A stretch of DNA of 26,577 nt from the IMG/VR virus record IMGVR_UViG_3300002180_000056, positions 1-26,577 of that record; one strand, written 5' to 3'. Position 1 is the first letter of the stretch; every line of letters starts with the position of its first letter. Position numbers and translations under genes: made by a program. A model generated the notes under the pieces. The model worked only from the letters and a program-made list of their open reading frames with translations, was not told the origin of the DNA and ran no database searches. The DNA comes from a virus (taxonomy: Duplodnaviria; Caudoviricetes). Shown piece by piece: positions 1,647-26,468 of the stretch.

Positions 1647-2662
1647 TGGCTACACTATCAACAACAATGCCCACCATGTTGGATTGGGCTAAAACACGCG
1701 ACCCAAGCGGCAATACGGCTGATATAGTCGAAATGCTGGCGCAGGTAAACTCAGCCGCACAAGATCAGGTAATGGTTGAGGGCAATCTGCCAACGGGTCA
1801 TCAAACAACAATCAGAACCGGACTACCTACCGCTTACTATCGGATGGTTAACGCTGGTACTCCACCTTCAAAAGCAACGCAAGTTCAAGTAACAGAAAAC
1901 TGTGCAATGCTTGAAAGCCGATCTCATGTTGATTTTAAGCAGGCTAATTTGCAGAATGATTCGGTAGCGTATCGCTTGCAGCAAGCTAGAGCGCACGTTG
2001 AAGGCATGTCTCAGACCGATGCCACTACAATGTTCTACGGTTCTGCGGCAAACCCAGAAGAGTACGTGGGATTGTCTAACCGTTACAATGATCTATCAGC
2101 CGCTAATGCAGATAATATTATCGACGCTGGCGGTACTAGCACTGATAATATGTCGGTATGGCTAATTGGTTGGGGTGATAATGCTATTCACGGCATATTC
2201 CCTAAAGGCTCTAACGTCGGTATTGATCATCAAGATCTTGGCGTTGATGACGTTGATGACGCAGACGGTAATCCTTTCCGCGCATACAAAGACCTTTTCC
2301 AGTTGGATAAAGGTTTAGTTGTGGCAAACTGGCAGTATGGTGTACGGATTGCCAATATTGACAATTCTGATCTTATCGGCGCTACAGGCACGCAGGCGGC
2401 TTCTGCGGCTACAGCAGTAATTAAGCTGATGTCACGCGCAATTGATCACATACCATCGATTGATTCCGTTAACGCTGCGTTTTATGTTAACCGCACCCTT
2501 GCTTCTCACTTGCGCGTTGCTGCGCTAGATAAGAGCAATAGCGCGGTGACTATCGAGCCAGCTATCAATCAGTTTGGGCGTTCAATTCATCAAATGATGT
2601 TTTTGGGTATTCCTGTTCGTCTTCAAGACGTTCTAACCGTTGCCGAAGCCCGAGTGGTTTAA
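1646..2662 (+). CDS. Major capsid protein (HK97 fold, BPP-1 Bbp17-like)
   Basis: 338 aa; 'IVEMLAQVN', 'EGNLPTGHQTTIRTGLP', C-terminal 'FLGIPVRLQDVLTVAEARVV' recalled from this capsid family. Confidence 0.9.
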   Translation: MATLSTTMPTMLDWAKTRDPSGNTADIVEMLAQVNSAAQDQVMVEGNLPTGHQTTIRTGLPTAYYRMVNAGTPPSKATQVQVTENCAMLESRSHVDFKQANLQNDSVAYRLQQARAHVEGMSQTDATTMFYGSAANPEEYVGLSNRYNDLSAANADNIIDAGGTSTDNMSVWLIGWGDNAIHGIFPKGSNVGIDHQDLGVDDVDDADGNPFRAYKDLFQLDKGLVVANWQYGVRIANIDNSDLIGATGTQAASAATAVIKLMSRAIDHIPSIDSVNAAFYVNRTLASHLRVAALDKSNSAVTIEPAINQFGRSIHQMMFLGIPVRLQDVLTVAEARVV

Positions 2663-2673
2663 GGAGAAGCAAT

Positions 2674-3147
2674 ATGTATATTGATAAGCTTTTAAAACTG
2701 TCAGACGCGCAAGCGCTAACCGCTACAGCGGTCGGCACTAACGTAGTCGATCTTGAAGTAGTTGCTGGGATTGGTAACGGTACGCCTATGGCTGTAGTGT
2801 TCTCGGTAGGTGTTACGGCGGATCAAACCACAGGTGATGAGGATTACACCTTTGATGTTGAGTACGCAACCAACGCCGCGCAGTCTACCGGCGCTCAGTT
2901 GATGGGGCGGCGAATATTTGAATCAGGCACACCAGGAGCGCCCGCACAGGATGCTGATTTACTGGTTGCTGGGTTCGTGTTCGCTATTCCTATCCCGCCA
3001 ACTACTACAGGCGAGGCCGGTGATTTTATCGGCGTTCGTTACACCTTGGCTGGAACTACCCCGACTATTACGGTTGACGCTTGGATAGCGCCGCTGAGTG
3101 ATGTTTCTCAGTATGTTTCTTATGCTGATAACGTAACCATCGGGTAA
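2674..3147 (+). CDS. Capsid cement/decoration protein (Bbp16-like)
   Basis: 'MYIDKLLKLSDAQALTATAVGTNVVDL' N-terminus, beta-rich, follows capsid gene, RBS AAGGAG. Confidence 0.75.
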   Translation: MYIDKLLKLSDAQALTATAVGTNVVDLEVVAGIGNGTPMAVVFSVGVTADQTTGDEDYTFDVEYATNAAQSTGAQLMGRRIFESGTPGAPAQDADLLVAGFVFAIPIPPTTTGEAGDFIGVRYTLAGTTPTITVDAWIAPLSDVSQYVSYADNVTIG

Positions 3148-3152
3148 CTGAA

Positions 3153-3350
3153 ATGAAGGTTAGAGCAATTAAGCGGGGATTCTTTGGCGGTGAGTATAGA
3201 AAGCCAGGGGGAGAGCCGTTTGATTGCTCTAAATCTGAATTTAGTTCTAACTGGATGGAAGTAGTCAGGAAGAACTCAAAGCCTTTGGATTTAGGCGGGT
3301 ATGTTCCTTTGGAGATACCTGGCTTGATGTATAAGGATAAAAAGGATTAA
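3153..3350 (+). CDS. Small hypothetical head-module protein
   Basis: 65 aa 'MKVRAIKRGFFGG..R.PG..F', fills the operon gap. Confidence 0.65.
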   Translation: MKVRAIKRGFFGGEYRKPGGEPFDCSKSEFSSNWMEVVRKNSKPLDLGGYVPLEIPGLMYKDKKD

Positions 3351-14431: not shown

Positions 14432-14532
14432 GCTGCCGCGCATTTAACAAAATTCAGCATTAGCGCAATAGCGGGATAGCGGGATATTCCGGCCTGATCT
14501 ATTTCCTCGTTAATAGTGATGGCCGGTCTTAT

Positions 14533-15132
14533 TTAACAGTATGGCTTTAATCCAGCATCCCTTAGAATCTTTCTAAATCGGACGATCTCGTTTTTAATGT
14601 CGGTGTAGTGCGGTAATTGCTCTTTTAATGGTTTATGCGGCCCGTTCAGCCAGTCTAAGTGATCCTGGCCGTACTTATCTATGATGAATAGCTCGTACTC
14701 CTTACGCTTGCCAGAGCCGTGCTGATTGCATTCAACTGAGCATTGCTTGTGAATATTGGTAAGTTCAAACCTTAGTTCGGGGCTACTGCCCCTGCTAATC
14801 ATGTGGCCAGCATCATACTTAACGGACTGGCTAGTTTTCCCGCAAGTGCAACACCCAAGATTCTTATCTCGGACATGTACTACCCACTGATTCACAAGCT
14901 TTTGATATTGGTTTAGCCAGTCCTGCCTGCGCTTAACCCGCTCCTTATCGTCCCTCTGCTTTGATCTCAGGGCTTTTGCGTTCCTCATGGCGTCATTGGC
15001 AGCCTTTTTGCGTGAAAGCCTCTGGCCGTACTGAGAGGCGCATTCAAAGCTATGAAACCAGTTAAGCTGAACCTTAATCATAACGTCACGATCAAAGCGG
15101 TCAGGGCAACCTTTGCACTTTAGTTTTGGCAT
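14533..15132 (-). CDS. ninG: NinG/Rap recombination endonuclease
   Basis: N-terminal CxxC, 'VRD...CCTCG...YDAGH..SRGSSPELRF...NIHKQC..CN..GSG'. Confidence 0.9.
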   Translation of the reverse strand: MPKLKCKGCPDRFDRDVMIKVQLNWFHSFECASQYGQRLSRKKAANDAMRNAKALRSKQRDDKERVKRRQDWLNQYQKLVNQWVVHVRDKNLGCCTCGKTSQSVKYDAGHMISRGSSPELRFELTNIHKQCSVECNQHGSGKRKEYELFIIDKYGQDHLDWLNGPHKPLKEQLPHYTDIKNEIVRFRKILRDAGLKPYC

Positions 15133-15433: not shown

Positions 15434-15520
15434 TTATTGTCCATGTTTACCCTTTAATATCCTAATATGCGGAAAGTGCGGAAAGTGCGGAATGTGTGCC
15501 GCTTATTACCGCTGTTATAG
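15434..15520 (+). other. Array-proximal attI-like / degenerate attC site, copy 1
   Basis: Near-identical to 22975-23052; ends in core GTTATAG (15514-15520); three TGCGGAA(A/T)G direct repeats; inverted repeat TAATATGCGG/CCGCTTATTA. Confidence 0.65.
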
Positions 15521-15739
15521 GTCAGCGCTCATATAAAACGTGTGTTTCATCGCTGCGCCGTACCCTATGTGAGCCATAATGTCGCCAGGCATAAACCACT
15601 CACAAATCCATCCCTTATATTGATACTGGTAAGAAGGCGAGTAGTATATGTATTTAGGTTCTTGATGGTGTTCTTCACAGTATTTATCCCACGCTTTTTG
15701 CGCAGATCCGTTCTTTCTTGGTCTTTCAAAATACTCCAT
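15515..15739 (-). CDS. Cassette A1 ORF, hypothetical
   Basis: 74 aa; TAA stop lies in the core site GTTA. Confidence 0.75.
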   Translation of the reverse strand: MEYFERPRKNGSAQKAWDKYCEEHHQEPKYIYYSPSYQYQYKGWICEWFMPGDIMAHIGYGAAMKHTFYMSADL

Positions 15740-15746
15740 AAGTCAC

Positions 15747-15808
15747 CTATAACAAGGGCGCTGAAATTCGACTCCGCTACGCTGCGCGATTTAGCTGAAG
15801 CGTTAGCT
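15747..15808 (+). repeat. attC site A1 (62 bp)
   Basis: CTATAAC...GTTAGCT imperfect palindrome; three differences from 23859-23919 between the cores. Confidence 0.9.
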
Positions 15809-16003
15809 GTCTAAAAGCGCCTTCAAGTAATAGATAGGAACCATATCAATCATGCCGTCACTTATACGAACAAATATTGCACATGTTCTTGAATCCCCTC
15901 CTTTCGTGTAGCCATCAATATATCCGGCATCAAACTCCTTCAGCTCAGTTTGATGTATATCCCTAGTTAATTGCGCTATGGTTTTTCCTTTTGGTATTTT
16001 CAT
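15803..16003 (-). CDS. Cassette A2 ORF, hypothetical (66 aa, start revised)
   Basis: ATG at 16003 preceded by GGAGG; stop in core site. Confidence 0.7.
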   Translation of the reverse strand: MKIPKGKTIAQLTRDIHQTELKEFDAGYIDGYTKGGDSRTCAIFVRISDGMIDMVPIYYLKALLDS

Positions 16004-16018
16004 TATCGTAGCCTCCAC

Positions 16019-16077
16019 AGCTAACAAGAAATTCAAGCCGACCTCGTACCTCGGCGGTTTAATATTGGGCGTTATAA
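16019..16077 (+). repeat. attC site A2 (59 bp)
   Basis: AGCTAAC AAGAA ATTCAAGCCGAC...GCGGTTTAAT ATTGGGC GTTATAA; aadA-type 59-base-element layout with unpaired C and A on the + strand. Confidence 0.95.
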
Positions 16078-16236
16078 ATCATCATGCGCCCTATACTTCT
16101 TGGCAATAAACGCCCGTTCTACATGTATCATCACCGCCGCCCGATCCTTTGCCGGAACCTGCGTTTCGATATAGTTCCGGCGCTCTTCTCTTGATTTTAG
16201 TTTAAGGCACTGTAGCGCGTAGTGCCTCGGCCACAT
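16072..16236 (-). CDS. Small phage protein, 54 aa (not in ORF track)
   Basis: MWPRHYALQCLKLKSREERRNYIETQVPAKDRAAVMIHVERAFIAKKYRAHDDL; GGAG RBS; stop lies in the last core site of array A. Confidence 0.75.
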   Translation of the reverse strand: MWPRHYALQCLKLKSREERRNYIETQVPAKDRAAVMIHVERAFIAKKYRAHDDL

Positions 16237-16244
16237 TATCTCCA

Positions 16245-16580
16245 TCAGAATGCAATGTCGTCATCAAATTGATTTGGTGCTTGGTTTTGTTGATAGCTGC
16301 CCTGCTGCTGACCTTGCGCCGGTTGATTCTTGGTATTTTCCGAGTTCCAAAAAACATACATTTTTACAGGGCCGGTATGACCTAATGGCATAACGTCAAT
16401 TTCAACCTCTACATTTGGTGCGCTTGATCCCTGTCGAGCAGGCCATAGCGTAGCTCTGCCAACGGTCGCATATCGATTTTTCATTGCTGGCTGTCCGTTT
16501 TGCCCTGTCTGGCTGGTCTGGTACTTTTCAGCAATTACCGCTACACGGCCTTTGTCTAATGGTGCGTTGTTGTTTTGCAT
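16245..16580 (-). CDS. Putative single-stranded DNA-binding protein
   Basis: Short beta domain, Q-rich linker, acidic tail 'FDDDIAF'; near the Sak recombinase. Confidence 0.65.
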   Translation of the reverse strand: MQNNNAPLDKGRVAVIAEKYQTSQTGQNGQPAMKNRYATVGRATLWPARQGSSAPNVEVEIDVMPLGHTGPVKMYVFWNSENTKNQPAQGQQQGSYQQNQAPNQFDDDIAF

Positions 16581-17362: not shown

Positions 17363-17841
17363 TACTTAATCCTTAAGCTAGGTTTACTTACACCAAGTTC
17401 CGCCCCGTCTACACTGCCAGCCTTTAACGCTTCAAGCAATGCGCGCTTATCGATAGATTTAACTATTTTTTCGTTAGTGAATTTACCTAGTTTCTTTTCG
17501 TCTGTGATCGTCACAACCTGTCGGCCTTTCACCCTAGAAACTTTGAATAAATCAAATTCGTGCTTTTCTCCATCCTCCATATTCATCACAAGCCATTCCT
17601 TAGTTCTTAGCACGGCTTTTTCTTTAGAGTCTGATAGCTCTTTAAGCCTGTCAATTTCAGCTTTGATTACTACAGAGTCAGATTCAAGGCAGTTGATCAC
17701 AAAAGCACATGATTCGATCTTCTTATCACGAGCCTCTGATATACCACTCAAATGATCATCAACATCCTGCATGGTTAGATCGGTGTTTTCGACCAGCTCC
17801 AATATGCCCTGCTGCTCTTGTGTTAGTTCGCGTAAATTCAT
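17362..17841 (-). CDS. Siphovirus Gp157-family protein (start revised to 17841)
   Basis: 'KIESCAFVI..LE....IKAEIDRL', 'IDK..L..ALKAG.VDGAEL....LRIK'; ATGA overlap with the Sak gene. Confidence 0.8.
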   Translation of the reverse strand: MNLRELTQEQQGILELVENTDLTMQDVDDHLSGISEARDKKIESCAFVINCLESDSVVIKAEIDRLKELSDSKEKAVLRTKEWLVMNMEDGEKHEFDLFKVSRVKGRQVVTITDEKKLGKFTNEKIVKSIDKRALLEALKAGSVDGAELGVSKPSLRIK

Positions 17842-18389
17842 TTTACTTCTTCCCCTTTTGGTTTTCGCTGCCCCCACTGAAACCGAACCATCCCAGTAGT
17901 ATCTTTTGCGGCCAGCCAGTTTAATTTGTTTTCTGTGAACTCTGAATACCAGTGCCATTCCTTCAACTTTAGGTCGTATGACTGCTTAGGCTTCTTATTG
18001 CCGTCCATGTACCATTCGTTGTCTTTTAGCTTCAACTCTATAACTGGGTAGTCGTAAAGCTCCCTACCTATACCCCAATTAAAGCAAGCCCGCTTGAATG
18101 AGTCACTAGCCAGCCCTTTAGCTGCCTCGGTATTTGATTCTGTGCCAGTATCTTCTTTCTGCACCCACTCTTTTTTTTCATCGCACCATATCGATACCAC
18201 GCAATTATGGTTGCCGTTTGTGTGCCTGCGCTGCCAGTTTGTCGGCCCTACAGCCTCATCTAAGCGTTGCTGGTCAACCCTAGCGTCTTTGTAAGCCAGT
18301 ATAACTGCGTACCCGCTCTTCTTAATCCGCTGAACTCTAAAGTCTATCTGGTTGGCTGATAGCGGATCAGTTAAGTTTTCTATTGCCAT
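17838..18389 (-). CDS. Rad52/22-family (Sak-like) single-strand annealing protein
   Basis: 'LAYKDARVDQQRLD..VGP.NWQ', 'KGLASDSFKRACFNWGIGRELYDYP'. Confidence 0.9.
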   Translation of the reverse strand: MAIENLTDPLSANQIDFRVQRIKKSGYAVILAYKDARVDQQRLDEAVGPTNWQRRHTNGNHNCVVSIWCDEKKEWVQKEDTGTESNTEAAKGLASDSFKRACFNWGIGRELYDYPVIELKLKDNEWYMDGNKKPKQSYDLKLKEWHWYSEFTENKLNWLAAKDTTGMVRFQWGQRKPKGEEVK

Positions 18390-19191
18390 TGTAAAGTTCC
18401 GTTATTGTCTTTTGCGTTTTTCTTTGTTCGGCCTCGTACTGGTGGCTGTATCCATCGTTGTACGGTTTAGATTTTTCGGTATGCGGTATCCCGTCTTTGC
18501 AATCCCTTATGCCTTGTAGATAATCCTCTAGATCGCTCATTTGTAATGCCCTTTTTTCGTCTTTTTTGATTAAACCGTTGGTGGTGTGCTCTAAATTATT
18601 ATCAATCACATATTGATCGTAGGCTTTTGCTGCTTCTAGCTTATCTTTATGCCGACCAAGATAGATGGTCTTGCTATTTACAGTGATTTCTGCTTTCCAC
18701 TTGCTGCTTGACTTGTCAAAAAAAACCCCGCGATATCCGCTGGTGTTGGTTGCAATCAATATCCTTTTGTTTCGCTGTTGAACAGATTGCGTTGTAAACC
18801 TGCAATTATCAGGATCGTAATTTCCGTCATTGTTGATTCGATCAATTGTTAGGTCGTCGTTGTAGCCGTTAGATTCAGCCCATCCACGAAACGCTGCGAA
18901 ATCATACCATTCATCACAAATCTTGATTCCACGCCCTCCGTGGCTTTTATAAGACCGATGGTTTTCATTGTTGCAGCGCTGCTTAATGTTACTCCATGTT
19001 TTATACAGTCGTGTTCCGACCCCGCCGTGGGTGATGTTGACACACGACTTACATGATTCCGATATAAGCCCGCTATGAATCCTAACCTCGCAGCTTGTCG
19101 TGCAAACCGGACAGAGGAAAAGGCCATACCTAGACTTTTGCTTAGATGTCGCGGTTGCATATCGCATGTCTAGCTTTTTGATTAGTTGCAT
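18367..19191 (-). CDS. HNH-AP2 homing endonuclease, in frame with a 57 aa downstream ORF
   Basis: 'GGRGIKICDEW', 'LTIDRINNDGNY.P.NCR', AP2-type 'NTSGYRGV...W.A.I....YLG.....EAAKAYD'. Confidence 0.88.
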   Translation of the reverse strand: MQLIKKLDMRYATATSKQKSRYGLFLCPVCTTSCEVRIHSGLISESCKSCVNITHGGVGTRLYKTWSNIKQRCNNENHRSYKSHGGRGIKICDEWYDFAAFRGWAESNGYNDDLTIDRINNDGNYDPDNCRFTTQSVQQRNKRILIATNTSGYRGVFFDKSSSKWKAEITVNSKTIYLGRHKDKLEAAKAYDQYVIDNNLEHTTNGLIKKDEKRALQMSDLEDYLQGIRDCKDGIPHTEKSKPYNDGYSHQYEAEQRKTQKTITELYNGNRKLN

Positions 19192-21553: not shown

Positions 21554-21713
21554 TAATCACCTCCACATCGTCCTTAAAGATGATATTGATATGTCCCGCT
21601 GGCTCCCTAGCCCAAAAAAACTCACTGCATTCCCTTTCTACTTCAACGGTTTTACCAAGCATCTTGGCGTACCACGTATGATTGTACTTGCTCTTTTTTA
21701 TTCGTACTTTCAC
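21543..21713 (-). CDS. Hypothetical protein, 56 aa (not in ORF track)
   Basis: GTG start overlapping the HNH stop; MKVRIKKSKYNHTWYAKMLGK...WAREPAGHINIIFKDD. Confidence 0.65.
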   Translation of the reverse strand: MKVRIKKSKYNHTWYAKMLGKTVEVERECSEFFWAREPAGHINIIFKDDVEVINEN

Positions 21714-22375
21714 AGTCTATCCAAAGAATTAATTAATCCGTTTGTAGTGTGCTCTAGGTTATTGTCGATGACGTAAGCGTCATAGGTTTTGGCGGCTTCT
21801 AGGGCTTTCTCAAAATAGCCGATATGGATCACCTTGCTATCAACACTGATTTGAACGCGCCATTTATTTTGTGGCTTGTCAAAGCTTACTCCGCGATAAC
21901 CGCTTGTATTATTAGCCCTTAATCGCCTAGTGTTTCTGGATTGAACCGACTGCGTGGTAAGCCTGCAATTGCCTGGGCAGTAGTCACCATCGTTATCAAT
22001 ACGATCAATTTTAAGGTTGTCTAAATAACCATTAGCTAAAGACCAGTCACGGAACAGGTCGAAATTGATCCATTCATCACAAACTTTTATTCCACGACCG
22101 CCATAACAACTATAATCAGAGTTGTTTACGTTGTTGCATCGTTGATTCATACCCTTCCATATTTTATATAACCTAGTGCCAGTTCCTCCGTGTTTTGAGA
22201 AACGCTTACCAGTAGCAATCGCAGCGCACGGCTTGCATGATTTCGCTCTAAGCCCACTATGAATAACAACTTCCACGCTTGTCGTGCAATCTGAGCAAAG
22301 AAATAAACCATAACGACGCTTTTGCGCGCTTAATTCTGTCGGGAAACGCATGTCGAGCTTTTTGATTAATTGCAT
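21710..22375 (-). CDS. HNH-AP2 homing endonuclease
   Basis: 'YGGRGIKVCDEW', 'IDRIDNDGDY.PGNCR', 'NNTSGYRGV'; paralogue of 18367-19191. Confidence 0.9.
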   Translation of the reverse strand: MQLIKKLDMRFPTELSAQKRRYGLFLCSDCTTSVEVVIHSGLRAKSCKPCAAIATGKRFSKHGGTGTRLYKIWKGMNQRCNNVNNSDYSCYGGRGIKVCDEWINFDLFRDWSLANGYLDNLKIDRIDNDGDYCPGNCRLTTQSVQSRNTRRLRANNTSGYRGVSFDKPQNKWRVQISVDSKVIHIGYFEKALEAAKTYDAYVIDNNLEHTTNGLINSLDRL

Positions 22376-22974: not shown

Positions 22975-23052
22975 TTATTTTCCATGTTTTGGCTTTAATA
23001 TCCTAATATGCGGAAAGTGCGGAATGTGTGCCGCTTATTACCGCTGTTATAT
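22975..23052 (+). other. Array-proximal attI-like / degenerate attC site, copy 2
   Basis: Matches 15434-15520 apart from 4 substitutions at the left end, one fewer 9 bp repeat and the last core base; ends GTTATAT (23046-23052). Confidence 0.65.
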
Positions 23053-23463
23053 GGCTGCCACTCCTAATAATCCAGCGCCTAAACTACCGAAACCTTGACG
23101 CATCGTTGTGTTCATTGTTGCCGCCTGTCTTTGCAATTCTACTAGCCTCCTTTGCTCTGAAAAAACATCATAATTAACAGCTGGGCCATCCTTTATTATG
23201 CCAACCCCTTTCATGGCATTTACTAGTAAATCGGCCTCGGTCTGCTCTCTAACCATATTCTTTAATTTGTTGCGTTCTGTTTCTATTTTGCAAGCCGCTT
23301 CTTTTATCCTGTCCACCTCTTTGTCTAAAACGGCTACGCGATCAAGTAAATCAGCATTATTGCCATTAGCATCGTTTATTTGTTCACTTAGCTCATCGTT
23401 ACTTTTTGTTAGCCGTTTTACCTCAGCTTTAATCTCTCTCTTTCCTTTAAAATACATAATCAT
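23047..23463 (-). CDS. Cassette B1 ORF, coiled-coil protein
   Basis: 138 aa; stop in core site. Confidence 0.75.
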   Translation of the reverse strand: MIMYFKGKREIKAEVKRLTKSNDELSEQINDANGNNADLLDRVAVLDKEVDRIKEAACKIETERNKLKNMVREQTEADLLVNAMKGVGIIKDGPAVNYDVFSEQRRLVELQRQAATMNTTMRQGFGSLGAGLLGVAAI

Positions 23464-23471
23464 ATCCCGCC

Positions 23472-23534
23472 ATATAACAAGGTGTTGAAAAATGGACGGG
23501 CAAAAGCGCCCGCCTTTTAACTTAAGCGTTATAC
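23472..23534 (+). repeat. attC site B1 (63 bp)
   Basis: ATATAAC...GGACGGGCAAAAGCGCCCGCC...GTTATAC. Confidence 0.9.
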
Positions 23535-23834
23535 GGCTTCGCCGCAGTATGAAACAGAAAGCCCACTACTACCCTCAACCTTGCATTGTGCATCATTGAA
23601 TAGTGTTGTTATGTCTGTGCTTTTTGGTACTGCGTCATACCAGTAAGGGCTGAACGGTGGTCGCCATCGATCCCGATCGATAACAATTGGACAAGAGGGG
23701 ATATGAGTTTCTTTAACACCAAACAGCGAATCAAGCTGCTCGTACAGCTCCCTGGCTTCGGTAATGGTCAGCTCAACCTCATTGCCGCTTTTGGTTTCCA
23801 GTGCGATCTTTGTTAGTTTAAGTTTCTTGCTCAT
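23529..23834 (-). CDS. Cassette B2 ORF, hypothetical (101 aa, start revised)
   Basis: MSKKLKLTK... with GGAG RBS; the longer ORF-track start runs through the attC into the next cassette. Confidence 0.75.
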   Translation of the reverse strand: MSKKLKLTKIALETKSGNEVELTITEARELYEQLDSLFGVKETHIPSCPIVIDRDRWRPPFSPYWYDAVPKSTDITTLFNDAQCKVEGSSGLSVSYCGEAV

Positions 23835-23858
23835 TTTCGTGTCTCCAAGTTTTGCGCC

Positions 23859-23919
23859 GTATAACAAGGCGCTAAAATTCGACTCCGCTACGCTGCGCGA
23901 TTTAGCTAAAGCGTTATAT
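23859..23919 (+). repeat. attC site B2 (61 bp)
   Basis: GTATAAC...GTTATAT; near-duplicate of attC A1. Confidence 0.9.
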
Positions 23920-24135
23920 GGCTTCAATTTGCACATTTTTAGCCCATGATGTACCGTCAATAGCCATTGAAGTTATGAAATATAAATTACTATCTACGTG
24001 TAAAATTATCTCTTCTTTATCGGTTCCTGCATTAAGTATTTGCTCTGCGTTATAAGAAATGCGTTCGCCTTCGTAAGTGACTTTCAGCTTGTCGCCTTCT
24101 TTAATCTGTCCTGCATATAACAAGTCATTCAACAT
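23914..24135 (-). CDS. Cassette B3 ORF, hypothetical
   Basis: 73 aa; ATG and GAGG RBS lie inside attC B3. Confidence 0.75.
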   Translation of the reverse strand: MLNDLLYAGQIKEGDKLKVTYEGERISYNAEQILNAGTDKEEIILHVDSNLYFITSMAIDGTSWAKNVQIEAI

Positions 24136-24187
24136 CGCTCGTTCCTCGCTTGGACGGCTTCGCCGCCAGTTAATTAAGGCGTTATAT
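24115..24187 (+). repeat. attC site B3 (73 bp)
   Basis: ATATAAC AAGTC ATTCAAC...GTTAAT TAAGGC GTTATAT. Confidence 0.9.
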
Positions 24188-24412
24188 TGCCTTGCTGCCT
24201 AGCCAGTTATTTTTTAGCCCCAAGTACCAGCTATACGTATAAAATATTGTTAACATTAAAATACCCCACTGCTCTGCGGTATACGCTGAATAAAACCAAA
24301 ACGGCTGGCCCGCCAACCCAAACAAGCAGGCATATTTTTTCCACGCCTCCTTGCTTTGCTGTGTAAGCCAAATTGCCAAACCTCCGGTTATTGCTATTGC
24401 TAGTTGCTCCAA
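24182..24412 (-). CDS. Cassette B4 ORF, small 3-TM membrane protein (PnuC/SemiSWEET-like half transporter, tentative)
   Basis: 'FGLAGQPFWFY......QWGI', three hydrophobic segments; TTG start with AAGGAG. Confidence 0.6.
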   Translation of the reverse strand: MEQLAIAITGGLAIWLTQQSKEAWKKYACLFGLAGQPFWFYSAYTAEQWGILMLTIFYTYSWYLGLKNNWLGSKAI

Positions 24413-24430
24413 AACCTTCTCCTTAATTTA

Positions 24431-24490
24431 ATATAACAAGGTTCATCAAGCCGATTCGCTACACTCACGGCTTATTAACGGGCGTTAGGC
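24431..24490 (+). repeat. attC site B4 (60 bp)
   Basis: ATATAAC...ATCAAGCCG...CGGCTTAT...GTTAGGC. Confidence 0.9.
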
Positions 24491-24616
24491 GCCTAAAAAT
24501 AGGCCGATATTCAATCCAGCAATAATCCCGTTAATAGCGTCAATGGGGCTGCCACCAAAACCGGCTAATGCTAAATAGGCAAAAACAACACCAACACCCA
24601 AGTTTAAAAACTTCAT
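24485..24616 (-). CDS. Cassette B5 ORF, 43 aa hydrophobic peptide (not in ORF track)
   Basis: MKFLNLGVGVVFAYLALAGFGGSPIDAINGIIAGLNIGLFLGA; GAGG RBS; stop in core site. Confidence 0.75.
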   Translation of the reverse strand: MKFLNLGVGVVFAYLALAGFGGSPIDAINGIIAGLNIGLFLGA

Positions 24617-24638
24617 TTTTTACCTCATGCGCCGTAGC

Positions 24639-24698
24639 GCCTAACAAGAAATTCAAGCCGACCTCGCAAGCTCGGCGGTTTAATATTGGGCGTTATGT
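24639..24698 (+). repeat. attC site B5 (60 bp)
   Basis: GCCTAAC...GTTATGT; identical to attC A2 between the cores except at the apical loop. Confidence 0.95.
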
Positions 24699-25028
24699 TG
24701 CTTTAATCATAAAGCGCGGCTTTTCACATAAAGCGTTTATATTCACTAGCTGCTTCAATAGGTGCGCTCTCACCGGATCTTCGTGGTATTGCCTTTCCGC
24801 CTTTCTAATCTCGTTAGGGCTTGGTTCAATATTCCACCCACACTCAAATAATTCAGCCTTAATTTTTTTCAGCAAAAAAGCCTCATACTCACGTAGCATT
24901 GCTTCTGCTTGTTCAATTAATAGTCTATGCTCCGGTTCAACGTATGGTGGCAACATAACAAGGCGTTCGTTCAGACCTGCTACTGCGTCGGTTTTTTCTG
25001 GTTCGGCGGTTTGCTTATCTTCTTTCAT
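24693..25028 (-). CDS. Cassette B6 ORF, hypothetical
   Basis: 111 aa; start and GAGG RBS inside long attC B6. Confidence 0.7.
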   Translation of the reverse strand: MKEDKQTAEPEKTDAVAGLNERLVMLPPYVEPEHRLLIEQAEAMLREYEAFLLKKIKAELFECGWNIEPSPNEIRKAERQYHEDPVRAHLLKQLVNINALCEKPRFMIKAT

Positions 25029-25080
25029 TTTCCAAAATCCTCATGTAATTTCCGCAGGCTGCACAACTAAAGCGTTATGC
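24953..25080 (+). repeat. attC site B6 (128 bp, long variable terminal region)
   Basis: ACATAAC AAGGC GTT(C)GTTCAG(A)CCTGC...GCAGGCTGCACAAC TAAAGC GTTATGC. Confidence 0.85.
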
Positions 25081-25383
25081 GCCAATAGCGCCAATTTTAT
25101 CAATGTAATATTGGACTCTTTCAGTTGTTAAATAACCAACAACAGAATCACCGCTATCTTCTTCATCAATAAATTTTTCATCACTAGGCATTATTTCAAA
25201 CAACCCCTCATCACCACCATAGGAATATTGTCCTCTTATAATACTTAATGAATGCCCGTTTTTAAAATACACTCTGGCTCTAGCCATGCCATTAATTGGG
25301 TCGCTGACATCATCCACATGGTCAATAGTGTCTACGCATAACAATGCGTTTAACTCGGATTCGTCACTCTTCGCTTCGCTCAT
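25075..25383 (-). CDS. Cassette B7 ORF, conserved phage-type hypothetical protein
   Basis: 'F.NG..LSII.G.YSYGGDEGLFEI....V.GYLT'; start inside attC B7. Confidence 0.75.
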   Translation of the reverse strand: MSEAKSDESELNALLCVDTIDHVDDVSDPINGMARARVYFKNGHSLSIIRGQYSYGGDEGLFEIMPSDEKFIDEEDSGDSVVGYLTTERVQYYIDKIGAIGA

Positions 25384-25416
25384 TATTCCTCTCCGGTTAA
25401 CTAAATTGCGTTATAT
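25336..25416 (+). repeat. attC site B7 (81 bp)
   Basis: GCATAAC AATGC GTTTAACTCGG...CCGGTTAAC TAAATTGC GTTATAT. Confidence 0.85.
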
Positions 25417-25418
25417 GG

Positions 25419-25619
25419 CTAAATTATTTCCCTACTCTTCAGCGCAATAATATCTTCAGTTGTAAAACCTGCATCCTTCAGCTTTACAATTCCTTCCACT
25501 CCTTTGCCGTTTTGTGCTTTTGTTTCGTGTTGCTCTAGTCCAGGCCAGATGCAAATCATAATGCCGTTGTTGTCTGTAATAGCCCCTGTAGATTGCTCAT
25601 AATTTAGTTCAATTTTCAT
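25419..25619 (-). CDS. Cassette B8 ORF, paralogue of 21036-21236
   Basis: 66 aa; AAGGAG RBS. Confidence 0.75.
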   Translation of the reverse strand: MKIELNYEQSTGAITDNNGIMICIWPGLEQHETKAQNGKGVEGIVKLKDAGFTTEDIIALKSREII

Positions 25620-25640
25620 TCCTGTTTCTCCTTAATCGCC

Positions 25641-25702
25641 TTATAACAAGGCGTTCAAAATCCGACCGCAAAAAGCGCGACGGTTTAACTAAAGCGTTAA
25701 AC
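25641..25702 (+). repeat. attC site B8 (62 bp)
   Basis: TTATAAC AAGGC GTTCAAA...GGTTTAAC TAAAGC GTTAAAC. Confidence 0.9.
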
Positions 25703-26203
25703 ATTACGTTCTAAATAAACTCCGCGATCGCTCATCCGCCCCAAAGCTTCCGAGCATTCATTTCCGAATGCGAACATCACGGTACCGGCAGCACTTCGGC
25801 TTTGTTTGTGCTGGTTTTCTTTGCCTGGTATGAACTGGATCCGCCCTCCTAGAAATAGCATAGATGCGCATGATTTCATTGCCTCCTGGCACCAGGCTGC
25901 GTCTGTCCGGCTAAATACGAGAGCTACCCCGTTACCATGCGCTATCATTCTGCGGATCCAAAAAGGCGTCTCTTTGCCATACGGCGGATTAAGCCATACC
26001 CGACCGAGCCACTCTTTGCTAAGCCCATCATCAAACACAGTGAGCTTGGTTTTAGCTGGTACCGCCGTCTCCATATCGTGTGGTGATGATGGATCCAGAT
26101 CGAAAGTTATCGCCAACTCTTCAAAAATCCATGCAGGCGTGTACCACTCCGCGCTCTTGTGAGTATTTTTAGCTGCTGATTTATTTGTAAAAAGTCCGTC
26201 CAT
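25697..26203 (-). CDS. Cassette B9 ORF, phage-type DNA N6-adenine methyltransferase
   Basis: 'EWYTP', 'FDLDP', 'DDGL...W.GRVWLNPPYG', 'SRTD..W', 'GRIQF'. Confidence 0.9.
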   Translation of the reverse strand: MDGLFTNKSAAKNTHKSAEWYTPAWIFEELAITFDLDPSSPHDMETAVPAKTKLTVFDDGLSKEWLGRVWLNPPYGKETPFWIRRMIAHGNGVALVFSRTDAAWCQEAMKSCASMLFLGGRIQFIPGKENQHKQSRSAAGTVMFAFGNECSEALGRMSDRGVYLERNV

Positions 26204-26215
26204 TCGTCACCAAAT

Positions 26216-26270
26216 GTTTAACAAGTCGTCAATCGGACGGCTACGCCGCCGCTTACTTTAGGCGTTACTC
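26216..26270 (+). repeat. attC site B9 (55 bp), last of array
   Basis: GTTTAAC AAGTC GT(C)AATCGG(A)CGGC TAC GCCGCCGCTTAC TTTAGGC GTTACTC. Confidence 0.9.
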
Positions 26271-26468
26271 AAACAACCCTCTAGCCTTACCGCACTCATT
26301 ACACTGCTTTGATGCTGAGTGACTCATAGCCACCAGAATCCAGATAGGAACCCAAATACCTACCGTAATAACGGATAGGATAAGGTGTAGGATATGGCTG
26401 GTGCTTTATGCCACATGTGCAGTGATTTTATTGCAGTGTCGGCACTTTTTCATAATCATGTTAGACAT
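26265..26468 (-). pseudogene. Zinc-ribbon plus transmembrane small protein with an internal stop
   Basis: MSNMIMKKCRHCNKITAHVA*STSHILHLILSVITVGIWVPIWILVAMSHSASKQCNECGKARGLFE; in-frame TAA at 26406-26408; GAGG RBS. Confidence 0.7.

Follow-up and report, generated by a model that had tools for sequence, protein, structure and literature searches.

The DNA analysed here is a 26,577 nt stretch from a virus of the Caudoviricetes (positions 1–26,577 of IMG/VR record IMGVR_UViG_3300002180_000056), and is referred to as the window. By gene content it is part of a podovirus-like genome of a marine phage, with late genes (portal, scaffold, capsid and ejection) on the plus strand and early genes on the minus strand. 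The capsid protein shares approximately 50% identity with its counterparts in Pseudomonas phage AF and Limnohabitans phage DC33. Positions 14445–14512, where the late and early operons converge, hold short repeats and a hairpin; this is probably a terminator region. Record G001 has 100% identity to the window over 25572 bases and is probably not independent of it. Together the two close a genome of approximately 40.5 kb, and G001 represents a complete phage.

Two arrays of attC hairpins are present in the window. Array A has two sites and is located in the nin region, array B has nine, and a third array of three sites is found in G001 beyond the window. A search of 50,697 phage records for cultured relatives gave one short match to array B and three chance matches to array A. 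The features are listed below, with attC coordinates counted from TAAC to GTTA on the plus strand.

14533–15132, minus strand: ninG/Rap, downstream of array A
15434–15517, plus strand: docking site T of array A, core CCGCTTATTACCGCT-G|TTA, with the G at 15514
15515–15802, plus strand: cassette A-1, from TTA to the G of attC A1; its ends pair over 9 bases
15515–15739, minus strand: gene of cassette A-1, 74 aa, no Pfam or PHROG family
15750–15805, top strand on plus: attC A1, twin of B2
15803–16071, plus strand: cassette A-2; its ends pair over 9 bases
15803–16003, minus strand: gene of cassette A-2, 66 aa, no family found
16022–16074, plus strand: attC A2, twin of B5
16072–16245, minus strand: resident early gene, weak match to PHROG 3648
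17838–18389, minus strand: Rad52-family (Sak/Erf-like) single-strand annealing protein, PF04098, PHROG 1097
22975–23049, plus strand: docking site T of array B, with the G at 23046
23047–26267, plus strand: array B, nine cassettes with attC B1–B9, all genes on the minus strand
23529–23834, minus strand: gene owned by attC B2, 101 aa, unrelated to the A-1 gene
23862–23916, plus strand: attC B2, twin of A1
24118–24184, plus strand: attC B3, 67/67 identical to a site in the third array of G001, on another gene
24485–24616, minus strand: gene owned by attC B5, a 43 aa hydrophobic protein, unrelated to the A-2 gene
24642–24695, plus strand: attC B5, twin of A2
25697–26203, minus strand: Dam-family DNA adenine methyltransferase cassette gene, PF05869, own site B9 (26219–26267)

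The TTA that follows A2 is the stop codon of the resident gene at 16072–16245, and an upstream partner site was not seen. Relatives of this gene and of the A-1 gene were found, among viral contigs, only in the phage itself, and an empty form of array A was thus not seen. The annealing protein matches PF04098 with 28 bits (cut-off 20.3). Two HNH endonuclease paralogues on the minus strand (18367–19191 and 21710–22375) have 66% identity over 654 bases. The first gene before array B (26265–26468, minus strand) lies directly past a promoter-like stretch and has an in-frame TAA after codon 20. The part past the TAA shows a weak match to DUF4234, and the same stop is present in G001.

The two attC sites of array A are near-duplicates of two sites in array B. 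A1 and B2 have an identity of 0.95 and differ by one 1-base indel and two substitutions, and A2 and B5 (0.94) differ in the apical loop alone; both descriptions had been given in the original prediction and are correct. Over all 55 pairs of the 11 window sites the median identity is 0.63, and the best pair after the twins is at 0.77. The lack of similarity claimed for the attached genes is confirmed as well: genes flanking the twins are unrelated on either side, with local alignment scores of 16–20 against shuffled means of 16–18 in 4/4 gene pairs. A third near-duplicate pair, absent from the original prediction, consists of the docking sites at 15434–15517 and 22975–23049 (identity 0.84), the main difference being one 9-base repeat unit. 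The A1/B2 type is also found twice in another phage contig (L191 plus L192), in two arrays with unrelated genes.

An assembly artefact, the outcome that had been named as fatal to the prediction, is extremely improbable as the origin of the duplicates. The hairpins are high-depth repeats where unitigs break, as an artefact would have it. However, the gene-to-hairpin junctions are covered at single-copy depth with zero mismatches: unitigs of run X1 match positions 15490–15786, 15776–16038 and 16047–16300 without mismatch at a depth of 22–26. These unitigs break inside the hairpins and thus give no phasing across them, and X1 may be the window's own sample. The twins also differ at 3 positions, and the pattern is seen again in other contigs. 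Hairpin depth in X1 is 330–670, which shows that many other molecules of the run carry these hairpins. No RNA data set was among those listed as carrying the sequence.

Inverted cassettes and the docking site T

Sites were located with a profile scanner trained on 30, and then 75, of these phage sites, so that training sites score by construction. Unconstrained DNA folding was rejected as a site finder as it was noisy and missed true sites. The 11 window sites score 27–47, and three reversed phage genomes give 0–2 matches with a maximum of 16.6. The window sites carry R'' and R' cores (TAAC..GTTA) with L boxes; the L box of A1 is weakened by an extra G and one substitution. The bottom strand is more stable than the top strand in 9/11 sites. 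The canonical fold is clear for A2, B1, B2, B4, B5 and B9; in A1, B7 and B8 the minimum-energy fold is not the canonical hairpin. The bottom strand of A2 and the published attCaadA7 bottom strand have a 12-base stretch and both ends in common, and the latter corresponds to the coding strand of the window.

The two ends of each cassette are complementary to each other over 6–10 bases, for a total of 97 over the 11 cassettes. The permutation mean is 58.6, and 0/100000 permutations are as high as 97. The leader and tail of A-2 are also found in cassettes of other phages that hold different genes.

Every cassette gene in the window is inverted, a point absent from the original prediction; its coding strand is the attC bottom strand. 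Each hairpin is therefore owned by the gene that comes after it in coding direction: A1 by 15739–15515, A2 by 16003–15803, B2 by 23834–23529 and B5 by 24616–24485. The usual integron rule, which is not universal, of a gene on the top strand followed by its attC is not followed here. In 14 records, reading frames of at least 45 codons stop at R' on the bottom strand in 61/80 phage sites and at R'' on the top strand in 11/80. The bacterial control, scored with a cruder longest-frame measure, gave 64 forward and 14 inverted among 78 cassettes, and the scanner orientation agrees with the direction of intI in 6/6 bacterial integrons. Some true bacterial integron cassettes look inverted too, e.g., at 2320 and 3308 in L165 (a Desulfocapsa integron) and in the G706 array.

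Sites B6 (24956–25077) and B7 (25339–25413) are long hairpins that hold the ribosome site, the start codon and the first 15–25 codons of their genes. With the coding start inside the hairpin, one hairpin type gives unrelated proteins similar N-termini, and five B6-type ORFs cluster.

The docking site T is the start, in attC orientation, of all three G001 arrays including the one beyond the window. In array A the core is preceded by 9-base direct repeats, and the stop codon of the A-1 gene is inside the R box of T. The site looks attI-like in position and behaviour and is not a full attC. In an unrelated phage (G002) 6/6 scanned arrays start at T, and a seventh T is present. Over 15 records, the inverted gene stops at offset 1 in 24/28 T sites. 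At least seven platforms show identity as far as G|TTA, past which their first cassettes differ, e.g., the ninG platform in G002 and L262. These comparative data show an attI-like position and cassette turnover at T, with no adjoining intI found. In a wider set of matches, from which 15 of 47 loci were left out as G001, G002, G003 or duplicates, 17/37 matches have an inverted gene of at least 59 aa that stops at offset 1, and the others are mostly chance-like.

Bacterial genomes have 62 exact matches to T. One has an attC array beside it, on a phage-like contig, and an IntI over the cut-off is absent from that genome. The other 61 are without a following cassette array; both matches in Rheinheimera are inside an ordinary gene. 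T beside intI was not found among the bacterial matches, and the two attI regions compared do not resemble T. Decay of T from a left or a right attC half was also considered and rejected, as both comparisons give scores under the 10th percentile of those for genuine arms and tails.

The cassette genes face T. A phage promoter at the far end of an array can thus read them, and a Pc promoter reading from attI could not express them.

Several structures related to T were seen in other contigs. At 1811–1894 in L050, an ordinary G002:444-type attC has the T core grafted on its 5' part. L078 (JAHFKK010000006.1), from a Gottesmanbacteria bin, has T and three inverted cassettes by lysis-like genes, and is probably a phage contig. 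In G004 (450–496, 2320–2366 and 44282–44324) arrays end in one short attC type, head to head with inverted sites. It is possible that these short flipped attC ends represent a precursor state of the docking site.

Hairpin types on unrelated genes

The original prediction proposed clustering attC sequences across related phages and mapping them to cargo. The pooled set used for this has 42 sources, i.e., 15 records and the 27 of 116 metagenome loci that are non-duplicate and have detectable attC; many loci share assembly-name prefixes and so are probably derived from few metagenomes. With a hairpin type defined as a cluster at 88% identity, the 149 sites represent 90 types. Twenty recurrent types hold 79 of the sites, and the Chao1 estimate is approximately 435. 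Among the 136 site pairs with at least 88% identity, the own gene is common to 6 (one of them a terminal duplicate) and the other-side gene to 1. The proposal of a small pool of attC types reattached to new genes is thus correct in that the same types are found on new genes, but the pool is skewed and not small.

Seven sites in 5 contigs are of the A1/B2 type, and the 7 genes that carry them are unrelated; for the A2/B5 type there are 5 sites, on as many genes, in 3 contigs. Both counts are inflated, as G002 and G004 were retrieved via the A1 and A2 patterns. The B4 type is found on 8 genes. In G001, 8/14 sites have a twin (4 twin pairs) and the remainder are diverse, with 10 hairpin types among the 14 sites. 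In 17 pairs, two sites of the same type lie in one contig, with an expectation of 7.8 (53/10000 permutations), and one contig has two identical hairpins that share a private variant. Near-identical hairpins are not significantly more alike within a contig (0.938) than between contigs (0.930, p = 0.23). This lack of excess likeness counts against strong in-genome homogenisation.

The cargo looks like ordinary phage genes. Among relatives of the Dam cassette gene, 28/30 are without an attC within 700 bases. The closest relative (75%) lies in another frame, and there too the leader mirrors the tail. For the B4 gene, Vibrio phage K453 has a homolog that is bare.

A search of 400 Gammaproteobacteria genomes (G267 unscored) did not find the A1/B2 hairpin. 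Chromosomal integrons of marine Pseudomonadales have attC of the same build with identities up to 0.83, and no bacterial copy of these hairpins above 0.83 was found in the genomes searched. In the bacterial arrays G706 and G500, near-identical attC on unrelated genes are the rule. The array in G500 (L410) is chromosomal and contains many recurring cassettes of approximately 450 bases with little coding capacity.

Near-identical attC on unrelated genes, which is also in print for sedentary chromosomal integrons (PMC5371416 and PMC1382264, as far as the available text goes), would be expected if the cassettes had been built in a host chromosomal integron with few attC families and merely collected by phages, and the 14/78 bacterial cassettes that look inverted, together with the first two in L165, fit such a plain capture. 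It is nevertheless unlikely. The predominant orientation is opposite in the two settings (bacterial cassettes forward 64 to 14, phage cassettes inverted 61 to 11), the cargo consists of ordinary phage genes as described for the Dam relatives and the B4 gene, and no bacterial copy exceeds an identity of 0.83. One phage also has 10 types in 14 sites, unlike the uniform bacterial arrays.

Movement of cassettes and proposed reassignment of hairpins

Five cassettes are common to different phages with identities of 91–100%. In 5/5 the cassette keeps its own hairpin type (0.88–0.98) and both neighbours are changed. The shared cassettes are inserted between unrelated sites, with identities of 0.42–0.73, and homologous cassettes show compensating changes in their paired ends. 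This comparative evidence points to a mobile unit that runs from TTA to G, is cut at G|TT and comprises the gene with its preceding hairpin. Retention of the own hairpin with a swap of neighbours is the polarity of an integrase and not of crossing-over within repeats.

The second mechanism in the original prediction, a swap of cargo by Sak-mediated homologous recombination between the repeats, does not agree with this polarity. As the main mover of genes, with an integrase unneeded, it is quite unlikely. An annealing protein is present, mosaic hairpins exist and no integrase is encoded, and crossovers within hairpins would likewise leave the paired ends of a gene intact. Shared cassettes, however, keep one specific hairpin, and the sites between which they are inserted are unrelated. 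One crossover between A1 and B2 would remove 8.1 kb of early genes; the predicted deletion joints, A1/B2 or A2/B5, were looked for and none is present among the joints listed (15 of 17), in contigs, which drop rare variants. The annealing protein is also not among the families found in at least 3 of 9 array-bearing phages.

A tyrosine recombinase (PF00589) was found in 0/14 phage records, 7 of which are at least 90% complete, and no recombinase family is shared by at least 3 of the 9 array-bearing phages. The widest families in these nine are NinG and one very large protein family (6/9 each). A reverse transcriptase (PF00078) was found in 0/5 complete phage records; a group II intron or retroelement route to cassettes has reportedly been proposed, and the enzyme for such a route may come from the host.

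A phage recombinase of a kind other than IntI, supplied in trans by co-infecting phages, is a very unlikely alternative source of the activity. In four loci (L218, L226, L238 and L324) the position of intI, a few bases from T, is occupied by the start of a gene for a tyrosine recombinase of 214 aa whose catalytic residues are intact. These four loci are one lineage, 92–96% identical. Of 80 family members in viral contigs, only 1 lies downstream of T or an array, two stray single matches were seen elsewhere, and the enzyme is absent from 5 complete array-bearing phages; it was rejected as the missing enzyme. It is without the IntI insertion (TIGR02249 25 bits, cut-off 265) and folds like XerA, and ninG, ssb and further genes also have T ahead of them. 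Near T there are two more recombinases (L185 and L196), which are of other kinds. The family of approximately 200–214 aa has a catalytic domain only, with 96 matches at E below 1e-44 followed by a gap. It is present in many phage contigs of 36–45 kb, and the L226 copy is at 2530–3174.

The integron integrase IntI1 recombines phage attC sites (PMC9892861, available text), and a host IntI that acts in trans would, we infer, be the simplest source of the enzyme.

The hairpins probably also change genes. Hairpin type and leader class are nearly independent (14/124 against 446/7007), which places the join at or inside the hairpin. In three G004 arrays the terminal element is a complete attC that is flipped, with the join at its R'' box. 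IntI1 is described as cutting top strands at R'' (PMC5027507), and such cutting as approximately 1000 times rarer than cutting at R' (PMC5371416); gene conversion between hairpins was proposed for Vibrio (PMC1382264), each in the text available. In the mosaic site G004:5735 the arms are those of one type, and the 18-base centre matches A2 exactly. The hairpin of L226 has a central stem in common with a hairpin on another gene, and the L226 and G009 genes differ at 2/276 bases. These mosaics suggest that conversion or homologous recombination probably also acts on the hairpins themselves. Over the five shared cassettes, 42/426 hairpin positions differ and 60/1396 gene positions. This faster divergence of hairpins could simply reflect selection on the proteins. 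In a pair of methylase cassettes with 83% protein identity, the hairpins are unrelated.

The duplicates in the window probably represent a pool of integron-type attC hairpins found in many marine phages, with inverted cassettes and an integrase, likely borrowed from the host, that inserts them at a fixed docking site. In this model, which is built from comparison of sequences, small ordinary phage genes are carried as inverted cassettes, with each array anchored at T. An integron integrase, likely host IntI in trans, would insert whole cassettes at T, and a promoter at the far end of the array would read the genes that face T. Hairpins may in addition be reassigned between genes, on a slower clock than that of cassette movement and often within one genome; this part is less firm. 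An occasional cut at R'', by top-strand recombination, would hand a hairpin to a neighbouring gene, or Sak-type conversion would act between similar hairpins, and the two routes seem about equally plausible. With reassignment of this kind, A1 and A2 are most likely copies of the B2 and B5 types on other genes.

A more far-reaching version can be suggested tentatively, in which phages are a cassette factory where attC are copied onto phage genes. Unrelated marine phages would then share a mirror-image pool, a self-spreading phage-specific dock and a borrowed host integrase; the twins would be snapshots of cassette creation, and T would be an attI evolving from a flipped or half attC.

Significance and comparison with known systems

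It has long been asked how genes come to carry an attC in the first place, and no paper that answers this was found in the open-licence literature. Natural material for the question is provided by hairpins that are identical on unrelated genes, by cargo genes with bare relatives, by one gene family in two frames and by cassettes shared whole between phages. The 55-base hairpins and the 20-base docking core suit a standard recombination assay. If a host integrase serves the arrays, integrons would be a phage tool for varying early genes, including methylases, and cassette methylases may counter restriction.

By definition the arrays are phage CALINs, i.e., clusters of at least two attC with no integron integrase nearby (there is no PF00589 match in G001). 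CALINs in phages are already known, as is the occurrence, in chromosomal integrons of bacteria, of the same attC with different genes. No report of inverted phage arrays, of a shared docking site or of attC reuse in phages was found in the open-licence literature. What is added here is counted evidence that hairpins and genes reassort while whole cassettes move.

The phage CALINs of Qi et al. 2023 (PMC9892861) are similar in having attC clusters without intI, methyltransferase cargo and sites that IntI1 can recombine. The available text of that paper describes divergent attC within one phage, and an attI that heads a CALIN in a cryptic Shewanella prophage with its own intI. They differ from the present arrays in that no systematic inversion, integrase-free shared dock or reuse of attC across phages is found in that text.

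Sedentary chromosomal integrons (Loot et al. 2017, PMC5371416; Boucher et al. 2006, PMC1382264) also have near-identical attC on unrelated genes, and in the portions available gene conversion is proposed to keep their attC pools uniform. Compared with these, as described there, the phages have several short arrays each, with many types, inverted genes and no intI. The hairpin types are common to unrelated phages, and the setting is podovirus-like and not chromosomal.

In the text available of bioRxiv 10.1101/2022.09.11.507474, attI and attG resemble T, a fixed site, in an L-like box, a 5–6 base spacer, G|TTA and the receipt of cassettes, and the long form of T adds short direct repeats upstream as a further resemblance. 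Unlike attI, T has no intI next to it, is present in up to 7 copies per phage and is at the promoter-distal end of the genes; unlike attG, its sequence is conserved. Top-strand recombination at R'' (Nivina et al. 2016, PMC5027507), as far as it is described in the text available, gives R'' junctions like those in G004. Such recombination inverts gene and hairpin together, whereas here the gene is inverted relative to its hairpin.
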